Of a DNA stretch of 64,000 nt, positions 32,135-54,634 are shown piece by piece. Position 1 is the stretch's first letter, and each line of letters begins with the position of its first letter. Source of the DNA: Escherichia coli (GTDB lineage Bacteria > Pseudomonadota > Gammaproteobacteria > Enterobacterales > Enterobacteriaceae); assembly GCF_016026235.1 (NCBI RefSeq), contig NZ_CP065613.1. The stretch is one strand, 5' to 3'. The translations under genes and the position numbers were made by a program. Below the pieces are notes generated by a model. It searched no databases and was not told the DNA's origin. It saw only the letters and a program-made list of their open reading frames with translations.

Positions 32135-32278
32135 TGAGGGTTAGGGAGAGGTTTCCCCCTCCCCCTGGTGTTCTTAGTAAGCCTGGAAGCTAATCACTAA
32201 GAGTATCACCAGTATGATGACGTGCTTCATCATAACCCTTTCCTTATTAAAAGCCCTCTTCTCCGGGAGAGGCTTTCC
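32135..32278 (+). ncRNA. sibA: SibA antisense sRNA (type I antitoxin); coordinates approximate
   Basis: Sigma70-like promoter TTGACA(32100-32105)-17-TAATTT(32123-32128); transcript region fully antisense to the ibsA ORF; imperfect hairpin plus T-rich tail near 32251-32278. Confidence 0.6.
32174..32233 (-). CDS. ibsA: Ibs-family type I toxin peptide (19 aa)
   Basis: Minus-strand ORF ATGATGAAGCACGTC... translates to MMKHVIILVILLVISFQAY; too short for the ORF track. Confidence 0.65.
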   Translation of the reverse strand: MMKHVIILVILLVISFQAY

Positions 32279-32492
32279 CGTTTCAGCGTCCCGCTGAAAT
32301 CATCGGCTTACCTCCTTTCGCCCTGAATGCAGTCTATCGCTAACGCGTGAATAAAATAGTTTCCTCTGTGATTATTGCGTAACGACTCGCAAAGAATATT
32401 TGCTGGCAGGATCGCAGACTACAAAGCCTACGGATTGACAATCTTATCGTGAAGGCATACTTTCAGGAGTGAGGGTAGAGCGGGGTTTCCCC

Positions 32493-33786
32493 CTGAGGAA
32501 TCCCCAGAAAACAAGACAGGCATAGTGAGATGTGATCTAATTGATTGTGCTAACAATTTCAAGGAGATCACCACTATGCCTGCACGTTCATTATGCCAAA
32601 ATTTCCTTAACAACATACTGGCCCCTTTGCATCTTTACCGTCAAAAATCACTGATTGACGCAACTAATGCTGTAATAAATGGCGCTTCCCTCACACTTAC
32701 CAGTATCGGGCGTCATTTAACCGGTACGGCATCAGTTAAAAACAAAATAAAGCGGGTGGATCGACTGTTGGGGAATCGACATTTGCAAAATGAGGTTTCC
32801 ACCATTTTTCAGCGAATTACCCAAAAGATTACGCGGGGAATGTCTCGTGTTGTGATACTCATTGACTGGAGTGCTTATCATGCCTCTCGTTTTCAGCTTT
32901 TGCGGGCAAGCCTGGCATGTGACGGGCGTTCTTTACCGTTGATGAGTTGTGTCGTTCCATCATCACAGACAGCGAATGCAGATGTACATGAGCGTTTTCT
33001 GGAATCGCTTGCTGAGTGCTTTTCCCCCGGGACTGATGTCATTGTTATTACAGATGCCGGTTTTCAGGGGCGATGGTTCCAACAGCTCCGCTCCCGTGGC
33101 TGGACCTATATTTGCCGGGTACTGGGCAATCATTATTACAATGTTGGTAATGGCTGGGAAAAGGTGTCGGACTCAGGCACAAAAGCATCAACGACAGCAA
33201 TTTATTTAGGTGAAGGCCTGCTGGGTCGAGATAAAAATGCACAACATGAAGGGCATTTTTATCTTTATAAAAGTAAGCCTAAAGGTCGTAGATTTAAACG
33301 CTCGAAGGAAAGAGCAACCAGACCATCGGTGACGGCTAAAGCTCGTACTGCCGGGAAATCACCATGGTTTATTTTCACAAACAGTACTGAGTTCTCGCCA
33401 AAACAGGTAATGAAATTATACAGCCGTAGAATGCAAATTGAGCAAAATTTCAGGGATGAAAAAAATCCTCGCTGGGGATTTGGACTACGGTTTGGTGCCA
33501 GTCATTCATCCGGGCGGGTCACGGTATTGAGTCTGATCGCAACATTAGCCAGTATCATTATGTGGTTAAGCGGTTTCAGTCTGGAAAACAAAGGGATACA
33601 TCATAAATATCAGGCAAATACAGTGAAGCACAGGCGAGTCATCTCGTTATTAAAACTGGCGGAGAATGTGATTCGACATTCTCCACTCATACTAAACACA
33701 CTGTCACTTGACGCAGGGCTGAAAGTTCTACAGCAACGGTATACCAATATGATAATGGTTTACTAAATTTTCTGGGGATCCCTCAG
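32493..33786 (+). mobile_element. IS10-like insertion sequence (IS4 family), copy 1, 1294 bp
   Basis: Imperfect terminal inverted repeats CTGAGGAATCCCCAGAAAAC / CTGAGGGATCCCCAGAAAAT; flanking direct repeat GGGTTTCCCC (32483-32492 and 33787-33796; 10-12 bp depending on end assignment); encodes an IS10-like DDE transposase. Confidence 0.9.
32525..33766 (+). CDS. IS4-family (IS10-like) DDE transposase
   Basis: 413 aa; recognisable similarity to the IS10 transposase (KRVDRLLGNRHL, YSRRMQIEQNFRDEKN, HKYQANTVKHR); alternative start at MPARSL (32576). Confidence 0.9.
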   Translation: MRCDLIDCANNFKEITTMPARSLCQNFLNNILAPLHLYRQKSLIDATNAVINGASLTLTSIGRHLTGTASVKNKIKRVDRLLGNRHLQNEVSTIFQRITQKITRGMSRVVILIDWSAYHASRFQLLRASLACDGRSLPLMSCVVPSSQTANADVHERFLESLAECFSPGTDVIVITDAGFQGRWFQQLRSRGWTYICRVLGNHYYNVGNGWEKVSDSGTKASTTAIYLGEGLLGRDKNAQHEGHFYLYKSKPKGRRFKRSKERATRPSVTAKARTAGKSPWFIFTNSTEFSPKQVMKLYSRRMQIEQNFRDEKNPRWGFGLRFGASHSSGRVTVLSLIATLASIIMWLSGFSLENKGIHHKYQANTVKHRRVISLLKLAENVIRHSPLILNTLSLDAGLKVLQQRYTNMIMVY

Positions 33787-33912
33787 GGGTTTCCCCCGCC
33801 CTGGTAGCCTTAGTAAGCTGGCCAGCTAATGACTAAGAGCACCACGATGATGAGTAGCTTCATCATGACCCTTTCCTTATTTATGGCCCCTTCCTCGGGA
33901 GGGGCTTTCCCG
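33787..33912 (+). ncRNA. sibB: SibB antisense sRNA, 3' portion; promoter and first ~25 nt are separated by the IS (5' fragment about 32465-32492)
   Basis: Second copy of the Sib repeat unit: promoter TTGACA(32435-32440)-17-TACTTT(32458-32463), then the IS, then the remainder antisense to ibsB, ending in a hairpin plus T tail near 33885-33912. Confidence 0.55.
33810..33866 (-). CDS. ibsB: Ibs-family type I toxin peptide (18 aa)
   Basis: Minus-strand ORF translates to MMKLLIIVVLLVISWPAY. Confidence 0.65.
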   Translation of the reverse strand: MMKLLIIVVLLVISWPAY

Positions 33913-34144
33913 TTTCAGCGTCCCGCTGAAATCGGCGGCTTACCTCCTTTCGCCATGCAAGCAGTCTATCGCTAACGCGTAGATAAAATAGTTTCCTGTG
34001 TTATTACTGGATGCGTGCTCGCAAATGTGCCCGTCATTCAGACGATTCCCGACAGTGTTTCATAATTCCTCCATTTTTCTCCCTTATTGGCTGGCTACAC
34101 TAGTATCATTCCGCGAAACGTTTCAGGAAGAGAAACTCTTAACG

Positions 34145-43008: not shown

Positions 43009-44408
43009 AGTTCTGGCGACCCGGTATTACCGGCAAACTGTTTCTGGCGATTTTCGCCACCTGCATTGTCTTGCTGATCAGTATGCACTGGGCGGTGCGT
43101 ATCAGTTTTGAGCGTGGCTTTATTGATTACATCAAGCATGGTAATGAACAGCGATTACAACTGTTAAGTGATGCGCTTGGCGAGCAGTATGCGCAGCATG
43201 GCAACTGGCGCTTCCTGCGCAACAATGATCGCTTTGTCTTTCAGATCCTGCGTTCATTTGAACACGATAATTCGGAAGATAAACCCGGCCCGGGTATGCC
43301 ACCGCACGGCTGGCGTACCCAGTTCTGGGTGGTTGATCAAAACAACAAAGTGCTGGTTGGTCCGCGAGCGCCGATTCCACCTGACGGTACACGGCGACCC
43401 ATTCTGGTCAACGGTGCGGAAGTTGGCGCGGTGATCGCCTCCCCCGTTGAGCGGTTAACGCGCAATACTGATATCAATTTCGATAAACAACAGCGGCAAA
43501 CCAGCTGGTTGATTGTCGCCCTGGCAACGTTACTCGCGGCACTTGCCACTTTTCTGCTGGCGCGCGGTTTACTGGCACCGGTAAAACGACTTGTCGATGG
43601 CACGCACAAACTGGCGGCGGGCGATTTCACTACCCGCGTAACGCCCACCAGTGAAGATGAACTGGGCAAACTGGCGCAAGACTTCAACCAGCTTGCCAGC
43701 ACACTGGAGAAAAACCAGCAAATGCGGCGCGATTTTATGGCCGATATTTCTCACGAACTGCGTACGCCATTAGCGGTGCTGCGCGGTGAACTGGAAGCCA
43801 TTCAGGATGGCGTGCGTAAATTCACGCCGGAGACGGTGGCGTCTTTACAGGCGGAGGTCGGTACACTGACCAAACTGGTTGACGATCTCCATCAGTTGTC
43901 GATGTCTGATGAAGGCGCTCTCGCCTATCAAAAAGCACCGGTAGATTTGATCCCACTGCTGGAAGTGGCGGGCGGCGCATTTCGCGAACGATTCGCCAGT
44001 CGTGGCCTGAAACTGCAATTTTCCCTGCCAGACAGTATTACCGTATTTGGCGATCGCGACCGTTTAATGCAGTTATTCAATAACTTACTTGAAAACAGCC
44101 TGCGCTATACTGACAGCGGCGGCAGCCTGCAAATCTCTGCCGGGCAGCGCGACAAAACGGTGCGCCTGACCTTTGCCGACAGTGCGCCAGGTGTCAGTGA
44201 CGATCAGCTACAAAAATTGTTTGAACGTTTTTATCGCACCGAAGGTTCCCGCAACCGTGCCAGCGGCGGTTCCGGGCTGGGGCTGGCGATTTGCCTGAAC
44301 ATTGTTGAAGCACATAATGGTCGCATTATTGCTGCCCATTCGCCTTTTGGCGGGGTAAGCATTACAGTAGAGTTACCGCTGGAACGGGATTTACAGAGAG
44401 AAGTATGA
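43005..44408 (+). CDS. baeS: Envelope-stress sensor histidine kinase
   Basis: 467 aa; two TM segments, HAMP, H-box [12 protein letters not shown], ATPase G-box GGSGLGLAI. Confidence 0.93.
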
Positions 44409-45127
44409 CCGAGTTACCAATCGACGAAAACACACCGCGTATTTTGATCGTGGAAGATGAACCGAAGCTGGGGCAGTTGCTCATTGATTATCTGCGTGCT
44501 GCGAGCTATGCGCCGACGCTTATCAGCCACGGCGATCAGGTACTGCCGTATGTGCGCCAGACACCACCGGATCTGATCCTGTTAGATCTGATGCTCCCTG
44601 GCACCGATGGCCTGACGCTGTGCCGGGAAATTCGTCGTTTTTCTGACATTCCGATCGTGATGGTGACGGCAAAAATCGAAGAGATCGATCGCCTGCTGGG
44701 GCTGGAGATTGGCGCAGATGACTACATCTGCAAGCCGTACAGCCCACGGGAAGTGGTAGCGCGCGTCAAAACCATTTTGCGCCGTTGCAAACCGCAGCGC
44801 GAGTTGCAGCAACAGGATGCTGAAAGCCCGTTGATTATCGACGAAGGTCGTTTTCAGGCTTCATGGCGCGGTAAAATGCTTGACCTGACGCCTGCGGAAT
44901 TTCGTCTGCTGAAAACGCTCTCTCATGAACCAGGAAAAGTGTTCTCCCGCGAGCATTTGCTCAATCATCTTTATGACGACTACCGCGTAGTAACCGACCG
45001 CACCATCGACAGCCACATTAAAAACCTGCGCCGCAAGCTGGAATCTCTCGACGCCGAACAGTCATTTATCCGCGCCGTTTACGGCGTCGGTTACCGCTGG
45101 GAAGCCGACGCCTGCCGCATCGTTTAG
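44405..45127 (+). CDS. baeR: OmpR-family response regulator
   Basis: 240 aa; receiver motif [11 protein letters not shown] and winged-helix C-terminus. Confidence 0.93.
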
Positions 45128-45281
45128 TTTTAGCGACATTATTTTGTTAGCCGGAGATGGCGTTCAGACCCGATCCGGCCACATTATCCCACGCATGGTC
45201 AGCAAACTGACATTATCTCTCCGCCCTGGCAGGCATCAGAAAATCGCTCATACTTTAATCGGTAAACAGCACCTTTAGATG

Positions 45282-46707
45282 TAATGCCAGTCAGTTAAGC
45301 AACTGACTGGCTCTTTTTCGGGGCTGTGGGGTATTTCCAGGGCCTCTCCTTTACCACTCTCGGGAAGGCCCTTCCCCTTCTCGTCGGTAATTTCACAAGT
45401 TGTCCCATACTTGCAAGATCGCGCATCAGCTCCGGTATACGTCCCGGTGAAGCGCCCTGCAATGTCATCAGCATTCTCATCACCATTCCGCATGATTCTG
45501 AGAAACTCAGTTGATTCGGCCAGTAACCTTTCAGATGTTCCGCCATTTTAATCATCTGATATCTCACCAGATTATAAGCCAGTAAGACACCCCACAGCTC
45601 TTGCTCCACAAGCTCCGGCTTTTTACTTCTCAGCGTCAGCCTGCTCAGTTGCATCGTCTGTTTTATCTCCCTGTATCCCAGTTCGATTTCCCAGCGATGA
45701 CTGTACAGATCCGCCATTTCTCCTCCGGGGAAGCGCATGGCGTCCGTCATCGACGTCAGCAGATGGCAGACTTTTCCTTTGCGCGTCACGGTCAGCAGGC
45801 GGGCTGTCACTTCATTTCCCAGTCCCGGCCACTTTTTTCGTGCCTGCGGGCTGGTTTTCAGCTTCACCAGATGATCGCCTTTACCCAGTTTTCTGAGCTC
45901 TTCATATTGCGCTCCCTTTCTGAGAGGTATCATCCAGTGGCGGTGTTCTCCCGCCAGGCTCCAGGCATTTAACAGTCCCAGTGAGTAATAACCTTTATCC
46001 ATTAACGTCAGAGTGTTATCGCCGGTTTGTTCTATAAGTTGCTCAGCAAGCTCATTTTCGCTGTTCTTCATCGTGCCGAAGGCTGCAGCCGTCAGCAGAT
46101 GGCTGGTCAGTTCCATCTGGCAGACCATTTTGACCTGCGGGTAGAGCGCCGGGTTCCCGGCATGTGTCTGGCGGGGGAAGGCTGCATCGTTCTCTGGTGT
46201 ATCCGGTGTGCGCCAGAACACACCATCGATGGCCAGCAGGGTCAGGCCGCACCAGTGCGGATGCGGCGTGGCGTTATGCCAGAGCTGCGCTGTTTTCGTG
46301 AACACGCGGCGGACAGCCTCACTTCCCAGGCGCTGGCGGGCCTGAATAACGGCACTGGGGGCAACGAAGGGGCGATTGCCCGGCAGCATGATGTCCAGGC
46401 GATTCACAATCTGGTGAAGAGGTTCTTTACGCTCAAGCGCCATGCCAACAATACACCAGACCATCATTTCGAGGGGAAGACGGCGCTTGCGTAGCGTTAC
46501 AGTACCTGATTCGGCAAGGCAACGAGAGATGAGTTCGGGGTCGAGGTAATCCCCCAGAGAAGTCAGTGGGTTACGCAGAGAATCGTAACGGGATACCAGA
46601 TCAAGAGCCTGTCCAATGTGCATAAAAAAATCCGGAAACAAGTGAGCGTTTCCGGATTCTTACACAGCCACTGGATCGGTCAACTGATCCTTAACTGATC
46701 GGCATTA
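45282..46707 (-). mobile_element. IS4 insertion sequence, 1426 bp
   Basis: 18-bp imperfect terminal inverted repeats TAATGCCAGTCAGTTAAG / TAATGCCGATCAGTTAAG; 12-bp target-site duplication CACCTTTAGATG at 45270-45281 and 46708-46719; length matches IS4. Confidence 0.93.
45295..46641 (-). CDS. insG: IS4 DDE transposase
   Basis: 448-aa ORF (likely start at [13 protein letters not shown]); DDE motifs [30 protein letters not shown]. Confidence 0.92.
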
Positions 46708-46755
46708 CACCTTTAGATGCTGTTTTCGATACACAATTTCAATCAAGGAGTCATT

Positions 46756-47088
46756 ATGGCTGGTTGGTTTGAACTCAGTAAGAGCAGTGATAATCAGTTC
46801 CGGTTTGTGCTAAAAGCGGGCAATGGTGAGACTATCCTCACCAGCGAGCTGTATACCTCAAAAGCCTCTGCGGAAAAGGGCATCGCGTCGGTGCGTAGCA
46901 ACAGCCCGCAAGAAGAACGCTATGAGAAAAAAACGGCAAGTAACGGCAAATTCTATTTCAATCTGAAAGCCGCTAATCATCAAATTATCGGCTCCAGCCA
47001 GATGTACGCCACCGCGCAATCTCGTGAAACCGGAATTGCCTCCGTTAAAGCCAATGGCACAAGCCAGACGGTGAAAGACAATACGTAA
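46756..47088 (+). CDS. yegP: YegP (UPF0339/DUF1508 tandem-repeat protein)
   Basis: ORF track 46717..47088; start trimmed to MAGWFEL with SD AAGGAG at 46745-46750; two DUF1508-like repeats. Confidence 0.85.
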   Translation: MAGWFELSKSSDNQFRFVLKAGNGETILTSELYTSKASAEKGIASVRSNSPQEERYEKKTASNGKFYFNLKAANHQIIGSSQMYATAQSRETGIASVKANGTSQTVKDNT

Positions 47089-47240
47089 TTACGATGCCGG
47101 GCGTGGGTTGTTGGCGTCCGGCTTTATATCCAAATAACGCTTAGTTATTAATAATTAAGAGTAACCGCCGCCATTAAAATAGTGGGCACTGACGAGCACT
47201 CGTTGTGCTTTCTTTGTTTACCATCCCATACTTATCCTCC

Positions 47241-47252
47241 TGAACATGTTCA
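47241..47252. promoter_or_regulatory. Perfect 12-bp palindrome TGAACATGTTCA, candidate operator upstream of parDE
   Basis: Palindrome sits about 90 bp upstream of the parD start, within a likely promoter region. Confidence 0.35.
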
Positions 47253-47341
47253 TGTGCCAAAATATCTTCTAATACTTTCGTGACGCTATCCGGTTTATGA
47301 CATACACTGATGTAAGATTTTTACTTACAGGCGGGCGTAAA

Positions 47342-47593
47342 ATGGCCAGAACGATGACGGTTGATCTCGGCGATGAGTTGCGTGAATTTATCGAGTCCTT
47401 AATTGAATCCGGCGACTATCGCACCCAAAGCGAAGTGATCCGTGAGTCACTGCGATTACTTCGAGAAAAGCAAGCAGAGTCTCGCCTGCAAGCGTTACGT
47501 GACATGCTCGCAGAAGGGTTGAGTAGTGGTGAAGCTCAGCCGTGGGAAAAGGACGCGTTCTTACGGAAGGTGAAAGCAGGGATAAGGAAATAA
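47342..47593 (+). CDS. parD: ParD-family antitoxin (ribbon-helix-helix)
   Basis: ORF track 47297..47593; likely start at MARTMTV; resembles ParD/COG3609 antitoxins (TQSEVIRESLRLLREKQ); immediately upstream of a ParE-like ORF. Confidence 0.8.
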   Translation: MARTMTVDLGDELREFIESLIESGDYRTQSEVIRESLRLLREKQAESRLQALRDMLAEGLSSGEAQPWEKDAFLRKVKAGIRK

Positions 47594-47594
47594 T

Positions 47595-47891
47595 GTGCGT
47601 ATTATTAAACTCATGCCAAAAGCCAATGAGGATTTAGAAGGCATCTGGTATTACAGCTATCACCATTTCGGCGAACCACAAGCCGACAGATATGTGGAAC
47701 ATCTTTCAGACGTTCTCCAGATTCTGAGTAACAATAATATAGGTACGCCCAGACCTGAATTAGGCGAAGGTATTTTTGTTCTTCCTTTTGAACGCCACGT
47801 CATTTATTTCCTGCAATCACCAGGGGAAATTATCGTCATTCGTATCCTTAACCAAAACCAGAACGCCACCAGACATTTACACTGGAGCTAA
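47595..47891 (+). CDS. parE: ParE-family toxin (RelE/ParE superfamily)
   Basis: 98 aa; GTG start 1 nt after the parD stop, preceded by SD AAGGA; N-terminal EDLEGIWYYS and C-terminal IIVIRILNQNQNATRHL resemble ParE toxins. Confidence 0.8.
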   Translation: MRIIKLMPKANEDLEGIWYYSYHHFGEPQADRYVEHLSDVLQILSNNNIGTPRPELGEGIFVLPFERHVIYFLQSPGEIIVIRILNQNQNATRHLHWS

Positions 47892-53340: not shown

Positions 53341-54634
53341 CTGAGGAATCCCCAGAAAACAAGACAGGCATAGTGAGATGTGATCTAATTGATTGTGCTA
53401 ACAATTTCAAGGAGATCACCACTATGCCTGCACGTTCATTATGCCAAAATTTCCTTAACAATATACTGGCCCCTTTGCATCTTTACCGTCAAAAATCACT
53501 GATTGACGCAACTAATGCTGTAATAAATGGCGCTTCCCTCACACTTACCAGTATCGGGCGTCATTTAACCGGTACGGCATCAGTTAAAAACAAAATAAAG
53601 CGGGTGGATCGACTGTTGGGGAATCGACATTTGCAAAATGAGGTTTCCACCATTTTTCAGCGAATTACCCAAAAGATTACGCGGGGAATGTCTCGTGTTG
53701 TGATACTCATTGACTGGAGTGCTTATCATGCCTCTCGTTTTCAGCTTTTGCGGGCAAGCCTGGCATGTGACGGGCGTTCTTTACCGTTGATGAGTTGTGT
53801 CGTTCCATCATCACAGACAGCGAATGCAGATGTACATGAGCGTTTTCTGGAATCGCTTGCTGAGTGCTTTTCCCCCGGGACTGATGTCATTGTTATTACA
53901 GATGCCGGTTTTCAGGGGCGATGGTTCCAACAGCTCCGCTCCCGTGGCTGGACCTATATTTGCCGGGTACTGGGCAATCATTATTACAATGTTGGTAATG
54001 GCTGGGAAAAGGTGTCGGACTCAGGCACAAAAGCATCAACGACAGCAATTTATTTAGGTGAAGGCCTGCTGGGTCGAGATAAAAATGCACAACATGAAGG
54101 GCATTTTTATCTTTATAAAAGTAAGCCTAAAGGTCGTAGATTTAAACGCTCGAAGGAAAGAGCAACCAGACCATCGGTGACGGCTAAAGCTCGTACTGCC
54201 GGGAAATCACCATGGTTTATTTTCACAAACAGTACTGAGTTCTCGCCAAAACAGGTAATGAAATTATACAGCCGTAGAATGCAAATTGAGCAAAATTTCA
54301 GGGATGAAAAAAATCCTCGCTGGGGATTTGGACTACGGTTTGGTGCCAGTCATTCATCCGGGCGGGTCACGGTATTGAGTCTGATCGCAACATTAGCCAG
54401 TATCATTATGTGGTTAAGCGGTTTCAGCCTGGAAAACAAAGGGATACATCATAAATATCAGGCAAATACAGTGAAGCACAGGCGAGTCATCTCGTTATTA
54501 AAACTGGCGGAGAATGTGATTCGACATTCTCCACTCATACTAAACACACTGTCACTTGACGCAGGGCTGAAAGTTCTACAGCAACGGTATACCAATATGA
54601 TAATGGTTTACTAAATTTTCTGGGGATCCCTCAG
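53341..54634 (+). mobile_element. IS10-like insertion sequence (IS4 family), copy 2, 1294 bp
   Basis: Same element as copy 1, with at least two single-base differences (offsets 121 and 1087); flanking direct repeat GGATAAACTC (53331-53340 and 54635-54644). Confidence 0.9.
53373..54614 (+). CDS. IS4-family (IS10-like) DDE transposase
   Basis: 413 aa, protein identical to the copy-1 transposase. Confidence 0.9.
   Translation: MRCDLIDCANNFKEITTMPARSLCQNFLNNILAPLHLYRQKSLIDATNAVINGASLTLTSIGRHLTGTASVKNKIKRVDRLLGNRHLQNEVSTIFQRITQKITRGMSRVVILIDWSAYHASRFQLLRASLACDGRSLPLMSCVVPSSQTANADVHERFLESLAECFSPGTDVIVITDAGFQGRWFQQLRSRGWTYICRVLGNHYYNVGNGWEKVSDSGTKASTTAIYLGEGLLGRDKNAQHEGHFYLYKSKPKGRRFKRSKERATRPSVTAKARTAGKSPWFIFTNSTEFSPKQVMKLYSRRMQIEQNFRDEKNPRWGFGLRFGASHSSGRVTVLSLIATLASIIMWLSGFSLENKGIHHKYQANTVKHRRVISLLKLAENVIRHSPLILNTLSLDAGLKVLQQRYTNMIMVY

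Follow-up and report, generated by a model that had tools for sequence, protein, structure and literature searches.

IS4 insertion between the promoter and the coding region of yegP in Escherichia coli: a recurrent target site with a predicted polar effect

In the Escherichia coli contig NZ_CP065613.1, an insertion sequence lies between baeR and yegP, and the locus raises the question of what still drives transcription of yegP. The window, meaning the whole stretch of DNA analysed, was 64,000 nucleotides long. A first-pass annotation had described a complete 1426-bp IS4 with 18-bp inverted ends and a 12-bp duplication, an intact yegP Shine–Dalgarno (SD) sequence and a displaced native promoter. 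It had proposed that yegP probably depended on IS4-derived or read-through transcription. The features from baeR to yegP are listed below by coordinates and strand, with the basis of each assignment in brackets.

44405–45127, + strand: baeR (ORF list; annotated baeR in matching genomes)
45226–45254, + strand: native yegP promoter, −35 CTGGCA at 45226–45231, 17-bp spacer, −10 CATACT at 45249–45254 (prediction of Shimada 2014; consensus scan)
45261, + strand: equivalent of the K-12 yegP transcription start site (TSS), G = +1 (Kim 2012 supplement mapped onto the window)
45270–45281, no strand: left target-site duplication CACCTTTAGATG, leader +10 to +21 (direct-repeat search)
45282–46707, − strand: IS4, 1426 bp, transposase reading from the yegP side toward baeR (inverted repeats; K-12 comparison)
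45286–45320, + strand: terminator-like element at the baeR-side IS4 end (terminator scan; RNA fold)
45295–46623, − strand: insG transposase, 442 aa, intact (ORF list; profile matches)
46619–46661, − strand: 14-bp hairpin plus U7, 5′ of and overlapping the transposase ATG (inverted repeat; RNA fold)
46656–46683, − strand: transposase promoter-like TTGACC-16-(TG)AAGAAT, facing away from yegP (promoter scan)
46708–46719, no strand: right target-site duplication CACCTTTAGATG (direct-repeat search)
46720–46755, + strand: residual 36 nt of the yegP leader, with SD AAGGAG at 46745–46750 (identical to K-12)
46756–47088, + strand: yegP, 110 aa, two DUF1508 repeats, intact (profile matches; K-12 comparison)

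The anatomy of the element was observed directly and agreed with the annotated structure. A complete IS4 of 1426 bp occupied 45282–46707 on the minus strand between baeR and yegP. Its ends, TAATGCCAGTCAGTTAAG (45282–45299) and the reverse complement TAATGCCGATCAGTTAAG (46690–46707), formed 18-bp inverted repeats that paired at 16 of 18 positions, and the inverted-repeat pattern of IS4 gave 2 matches in the window, with 0.02 expected by chance. The exact 12-bp direct repeat CACCTTTAGATG was found on either side, at 45270–45281 and 46708–46719. Compared with the IS4 of K-12 (NC_000913.3, 4502090–4503515), 6 of 1426 bases differed, giving an identity of 99.6%. The K-12 copy has the same length, 18-bp imperfect ends, a 442-aa transposase and a 12-bp target duplication; it differs in its chromosomal site and in four transposase residues.

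The insG frame contained no frameshift. It extends to an upstream TTG at 46641, where the RefSeq start gives a 448-aa product; the ATG used for K-12 insG gives 442 aa. The transposase matched the profiles Nterm_IS4 PF13006 (E 3e-33) and DDE_Tnp_1 PF01609 (E 8e-32), and its score with the IS4 family transposase model NCBIfam NF033592 was 303.8 bits (cut-off 115). The Y-x2-R-x3-E-x6-K motif was read in the translation, consistent with the Y(2)R(3)E(6)K signature (PMC2266710). The element is IS4 itself, an IS4-family type element of the IS4 subgroup, and every defining feature tested was present: a length of about 1426 bp, 18-bp imperfect inverted repeats, an 11–13-bp duplication, a single ORF, near-identity to the K-12 copy and conserved target arms.

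The genes on both sides of IS4 were intact. baeR closes the mdtABCD-baeSR operon, and 154 bp separated its end from IS4. yegP carried one substitution relative to K-12, and its product had the accession WP_000929408.1 in all six other carrier genomes. The SD AAGGAG (46745–46750) was intact ahead of the ATG at 46756, as annotated. The right end of IS4 had been placed 36 bp before this ATG. The close upstream position was correct; the distance of 36 bp counts from the end of the duplication (46719), and the end of IS4 itself (46707) is 48 bp away.

The empty site was reconstructed by removing IS4 and one repeat copy, which left a baeR-yegP spacer of 190 bp. The 285-nt reconstructed site, extending into yegP, was 100% identical to one E. 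coli genome, and of 5426 complete E. coli genomes, 5384 carried it contiguously. The spacer differed from that of K-12 MG1655 at 2 positions, both upstream of the promoter −35. Only 6 of the 5426 complete genomes, scattered among them, had IS4 at the baeR-yegP site. In a far bigger set of assemblies, the ten loci that encode the same BaeS protein all had an uninterrupted 190-bp spacer. When one-genome-per-species contigs were searched for an exact match to the left IS4 junction, there was none. An assembly artefact was rejected on the basis of the exact duplication and the same structure in six independent assemblies. The baeR-yegP insertion is real and rare, and it is already annotated in six RefSeq genomes as an IS4 transposase between baeR and yegP.

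The target-site preference of IS4 was investigated with 19 distinct copies and their flanks. The common pattern was an A-run, a few bases, a duplication, a few bases and a T-run, with a duplication of 11–13 bp in 18 of the 19 copies. An AAA-N20-TTT rule is known for IS4 targets. The yegP leader, gtAAACag[CACCTTTAGATG]ctGTTTTcg, reads as AAAC-N2-duplication-N2-GTTTT and fits the pattern of the 19 copies. Members of the IS4 subgroup have a striking specificity in the target arms (De Palmenaer 2008, PMC2266710). Many targets were terminator-like palindromes, such as aaaacggCAGCCTTGAGCTGccgttttttt between bamD and raiA, and many resembled bidirectional terminators; the target in the yegP leader folded as a weak RNA hairpin. 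The sites at bamD-raiA, mdoH-yceK, adhE-tdk, aroA-ycaL and elsewhere had the same target architecture as the yegP leader, with the duplication set in a short palindrome. Both orientations were found in different genomes at mdoH-yceK (L018/L023), adhE-tdk (L020/L026) and aroA-ycaL (L024/L028), whereas the yegP site was occupied in one orientation only. The yegP-site insertion would have a regulatory consequence because this target lies in the 5′ leader, between promoter and gene. One other copy (L010, rraA-yhjB, strain GN02350) had no target duplication, its flanks being caccgcaaggtg and cttcaggaggag, a structure that may have arisen when two IS4 copies rearranged with each other.

The six other carriers had IS4 at the identical position, in the identical orientation and with the identical duplication. 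Their flanks represented three backgrounds: L001, L002 and L006; L003 (strain NN5); and L004 and L005. Compared with the window, L004 and L005 differed at 175 of 2800 flanking bases (6.2%) and at 9 of 1426 IS bases (0.6%), and the first flank differences were 46 bp from IS4 on the left and 26 bp on the right. The nearest relatives of L004 and L005 with an empty site were 99.1% identical to them. The left flank of the window was closest to empty-site genomes (99.8% identity), and no carrier was as similar. Since the flanks are far more divergent than the element and each lineage is closer to empty-site relatives, the comparison indicates that IS4 inserted independently in at least three lineages, each time at this position and in this orientation. 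A single ancestral insertion was rejected on the 6.2% flank against 0.6% IS divergence, the flank differences within 26–46 bp and the closer empty-site relatives.

The constant orientation was considered as a possible sign of selection. All seven occupied sites had the same orientation, a synthetic junction query found the opposite one in 0 of 5426 genomes, and other hot spots show both. There is a slight chance that this recurrence reflects selection for a regulatory outcome, either silencing of yegP or its RpoS-independent rewiring; yegP homologues have recently been seen next to the capK/capS stress/immune regulators. However, only about 3–4 independent events are involved, for which the chance of a shared orientation is about 1/4 to 1/8. 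With so few events, the orientation bias is not significant. The carriers are also rare (6/5426) and scattered, and the IS4 target pattern alone explains the recurrence. Adaptive silencing or rewiring acting beyond the target preference of IS4 is therefore very improbable.

The position of the native promoter relative to IS4 was determined from published data for K-12. The yegP TSS of MG1655 was experimentally mapped at 2163156, with a 57-nt 5′ UTR, and the upstream sequence given for it ends ...CATACTTTAATCG / ...CTGGCAGGCATCAGAAAATCGCTCATACTTTAATCG (Kim 2012, PMC3415461, supplementary file 2). It maps to G45261 in the window, just 3′ of the −10 CATACT, with IS4 beginning 21 nt further on. 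Independently of that map, the baeR>yegP spacer is reported to hold an RpoD-holoenzyme SELEX site with the promoter CTGGCA-17-CATACT (Shimada 2014, PMC3946193). This was the best + strand consensus match in the spacer, yet it scored only 8/12. The start site rests on one dataset (Kim 2012) and a SELEX-based promoter prediction; the supplement of Ettwiller 2016 gave no match for its coordinates or for the gene. With the TSS at G45261, IS4 interrupts the 57-nt leader between nucleotides +21 and +22 and displaces the entire promoter. IS4 begins at 45282, between the TSS (45261) and the ATG (46756), and both the TSS and CTGGCA-17-CATACT lie at 45226–45261, on the baeR side. The annotated displacement of the native promoter was thereby supported. 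The opposite arrangement, a native promoter wholly inside the 36 bp before the ATG, was looked for and was not the case.

yegP is strongly dependent on RpoS in K-12. In stationary phase, its log2 expression was 13.3/14.1/13.4 in the wild type and 7.0/7.0/7.5 in the ΔrpoS mutant, the latter being about the level of unexpressed genes (Cho 2014, PMC3923258, Table S7). yegP is also among the RpoS-dependent genes of EDL933 (PMC2907692). Stationary-phase expression of yegP in K-12 is almost entirely RpoS-dependent, via the mapped promoter.

Transcription signals were then compared at the two ends of IS4. At the baeR side, an 11-bp perfect hairpin, GCCAGTCAGTT-AAGC-AACTGACTGGC, was found at 45286–45311, four bases into the element. 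The terminator scan found a U-run on its 3′ side, TCTTTTTCG / UCUUUUUCG (UCUUUUU in RNA). Folding of the RNA from the native TSS gave an MFE of −29.3 kcal/mol with a z of −4.1, a stability equalled by 0 of 200 shuffles. At the yegP side, a minus-strand 14-bp hairpin followed by U7 (46661–46619) had an MFE of −23.5 kcal/mol (z −6.3). Because the −10 of the transposase promoter lies within its 5′ arm, this hairpin would form only in transcripts that start outside IS4. The hairpin near the transposase start would, judging from this layout, spare the transcripts of IS4 itself and stop read-in transcripts. In IS10 and IS50, a hairpin that takes in the promoter region shields the transposase gene from read-in transcription, and a similar arrangement is predicted for IS4, with the −10 in the 5′ arm of the hairpin at 46619–46661. 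With inward-facing terminator-like hairpins at both ends, IS4 seems insulated from read-in transcription.

Continued expression of yegP, from an internal or outward promoter of IS4 or by read-through over 1.4 kb, would leave the gene rewired and off RpoS. In all seven carriers, the ORF and SD of yegP were intact, consistent with the gene still being in use, although decay would be hard to detect in 333 bp. Weak + strand matches were found inside IS4, at 46555–46583 (7/12) and at 45880–45908, where TTTACC-17-CATATT scored 8/12, equal to the native promoter. Since the native promoter itself scores only 8/12, weak internal promoters of this kind are possible. A + strand hairpin at 46629–46658 has no U-run and so need not terminate transcription. 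IS10 has an outward promoter, pOUT. Outward promoters (Pout) are also reported for other IS4-family elements, namely ISAba1, IS1999 and ISPa12 (PMC9330008). These share the transposase family of IS4, but nothing comparable was visible in IS4, where neither a spaced outward −35/−10 nor a complete Pout near the end was found. The same review of TE-borne promoters gives no outward promoter for IS4 (PMC9330008), and a literature search on IS4 target consensus, polarity and outward promoter returned nothing specific to IS4 itself. No + strand promoter-like site facing yegP exceeded the threshold of the promoter scan, and the relaxed scan of the last 450 bp of IS4 gave no σ70-like + strand match of at least 8/12, the best scoring 7/12. 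The candidate at the junction, TTAACT-17-TAGATG, has a −10 without the invariant final T. An Rfam scan of 44900–47300 (E ≤ 1) gave no match, so the region contains none of the known antisense or leader RNAs. Together with the strong terminator-like hairpin at the entry end, these results make IS4-driven or read-through expression unlikely.

Basal expression might instead come from a minor native promoter in the retained 48 bp, with only the RpoS induction lost. The candidate −10 CACAAT (46732–46737) has the conserved A2 and T6 (4/6), and transcription beginning near 46744 would still start ahead of the SD. The candidate has no usable −35 or TG extension, however, and nothing in this segment scored above 5.5 in the relaxed scan. 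Its hexamer is CGCAAT in carriers L004 and L005. The K-12 data point the same way, with a single yegP TSS, at −57 (PMC3415461), and the fall to about the unexpressed level in ΔrpoS (PMC3923258). A minor promoter of this kind is quite improbable, more so than transcription driven from IS4.

The preferred reading is an ordinary polar IS4 insertion at a recurrent hot spot, by which yegP would be turned down; on the sequence evidence, this is probably the case, and a promoter swap is not. IS4 transposed into a preferred target, an A-run, short palindrome and T-run at +4 to +30 of the yegP leader, duplicating +10 to +21. The promoter remained on the baeR side together with nucleotides +1 to +21 of the leader, and the SD and ORF are 1438 bp further on. 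Transcripts that start at the yegP promoter or continue from baeR would enter the end of IS4 with the inward-facing hairpin and U-run, and most of them should stop within about 30–60 nt. At the yegP-proximal end, the transposase promoter faces the other way, and no consensus-like outward promoter was found. The expected outcome is strong down-regulation of yegP and its uncoupling from RpoS. Because a hairpin and U-run stand at the entry end and no outward promoter was found, we infer a probable loss of RpoS-driven expression of yegP. The annotated dependence on IS4-derived or read-through transcription was not supported, given the entry hairpin with UCUUUUU and the lack of a + strand match of at least 8/12 in the last 450 bp. 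The termination efficiency at 45286–45320 is itself a prediction, which counts against the down-regulation reading.

The effect belongs to a long-known class, the polar IS insertion between promoter and gene. IS insertions in the gal operon are the classical polar insertions, and IS4 is strongly polar in gal. As in those cases, the promoter is split from the coding region by an IS with terminator-like signals. Unlike in those cases, the polarity at yegP is predicted only, and yegP is monocistronic and of unknown function.

Further mobile elements were found around the locus. Two ISEc60 copies (IS4 family, 1292 bp, ends CTGAGGrATCCCCAGAAAA) lay at 32494–33785 and 53342–54633 in direct orientation with 99.85% identity, each with its own duplication of about 11–12 bp in a G-run ... 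C-run site. Between the two copies lie 19.5 kb with mdtABCD-baeSR, IS4, yegP, parDE and yegQ through gatD; as the flanking copies are direct repeats, recombination between them could remove this segment. Full-length ISEc60 was present in only 14 of the 5426 complete genomes, including RMDEC332, RMDEC364, VL46, CFSAN029787 and FDAARGOS_943. A tandem-type repeat of 230 bp with 85% identity (32147–32374 and 33785–34006) corresponded to ibs toxin loci annotated in a matching genome, and ISEc60 was inserted between its two units. A ParD antitoxin/ParE toxin pair was found at 47339–47891, between yegP and yegQ (trhP). parDE was absent from K-12 and several IS4 carriers and present in NN5, 0H26 and several drafts; from this patchy occurrence, it is a presence/absence polymorphism. 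Compared with the 5426 complete RefSeq E. coli genomes, the window had best local identities of 98.6–99.8%. It held three IS4-family insertions in 64 kb, and the exact IS4 transposase protein had at least nine copies in GCA_016026215.1, an assembly outside that genome set. The three insertions and the multicopy transposase suggest an IS-rich genome.

The significance of the insertion is mainly local: yegP in the carrier strain is probably outside the RpoS stationary-phase response. The seven strains represent natural promoter-uncoupled alleles of yegP, a highly expressed and strongly RpoS-dependent gene of unknown function. The locus is also a clean example of how the strong target preference of IS4 puts the same insertion, independently, into divergent E. 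coli backgrounds, and shared IS positions may accordingly mislead when they are used as markers of common descent.
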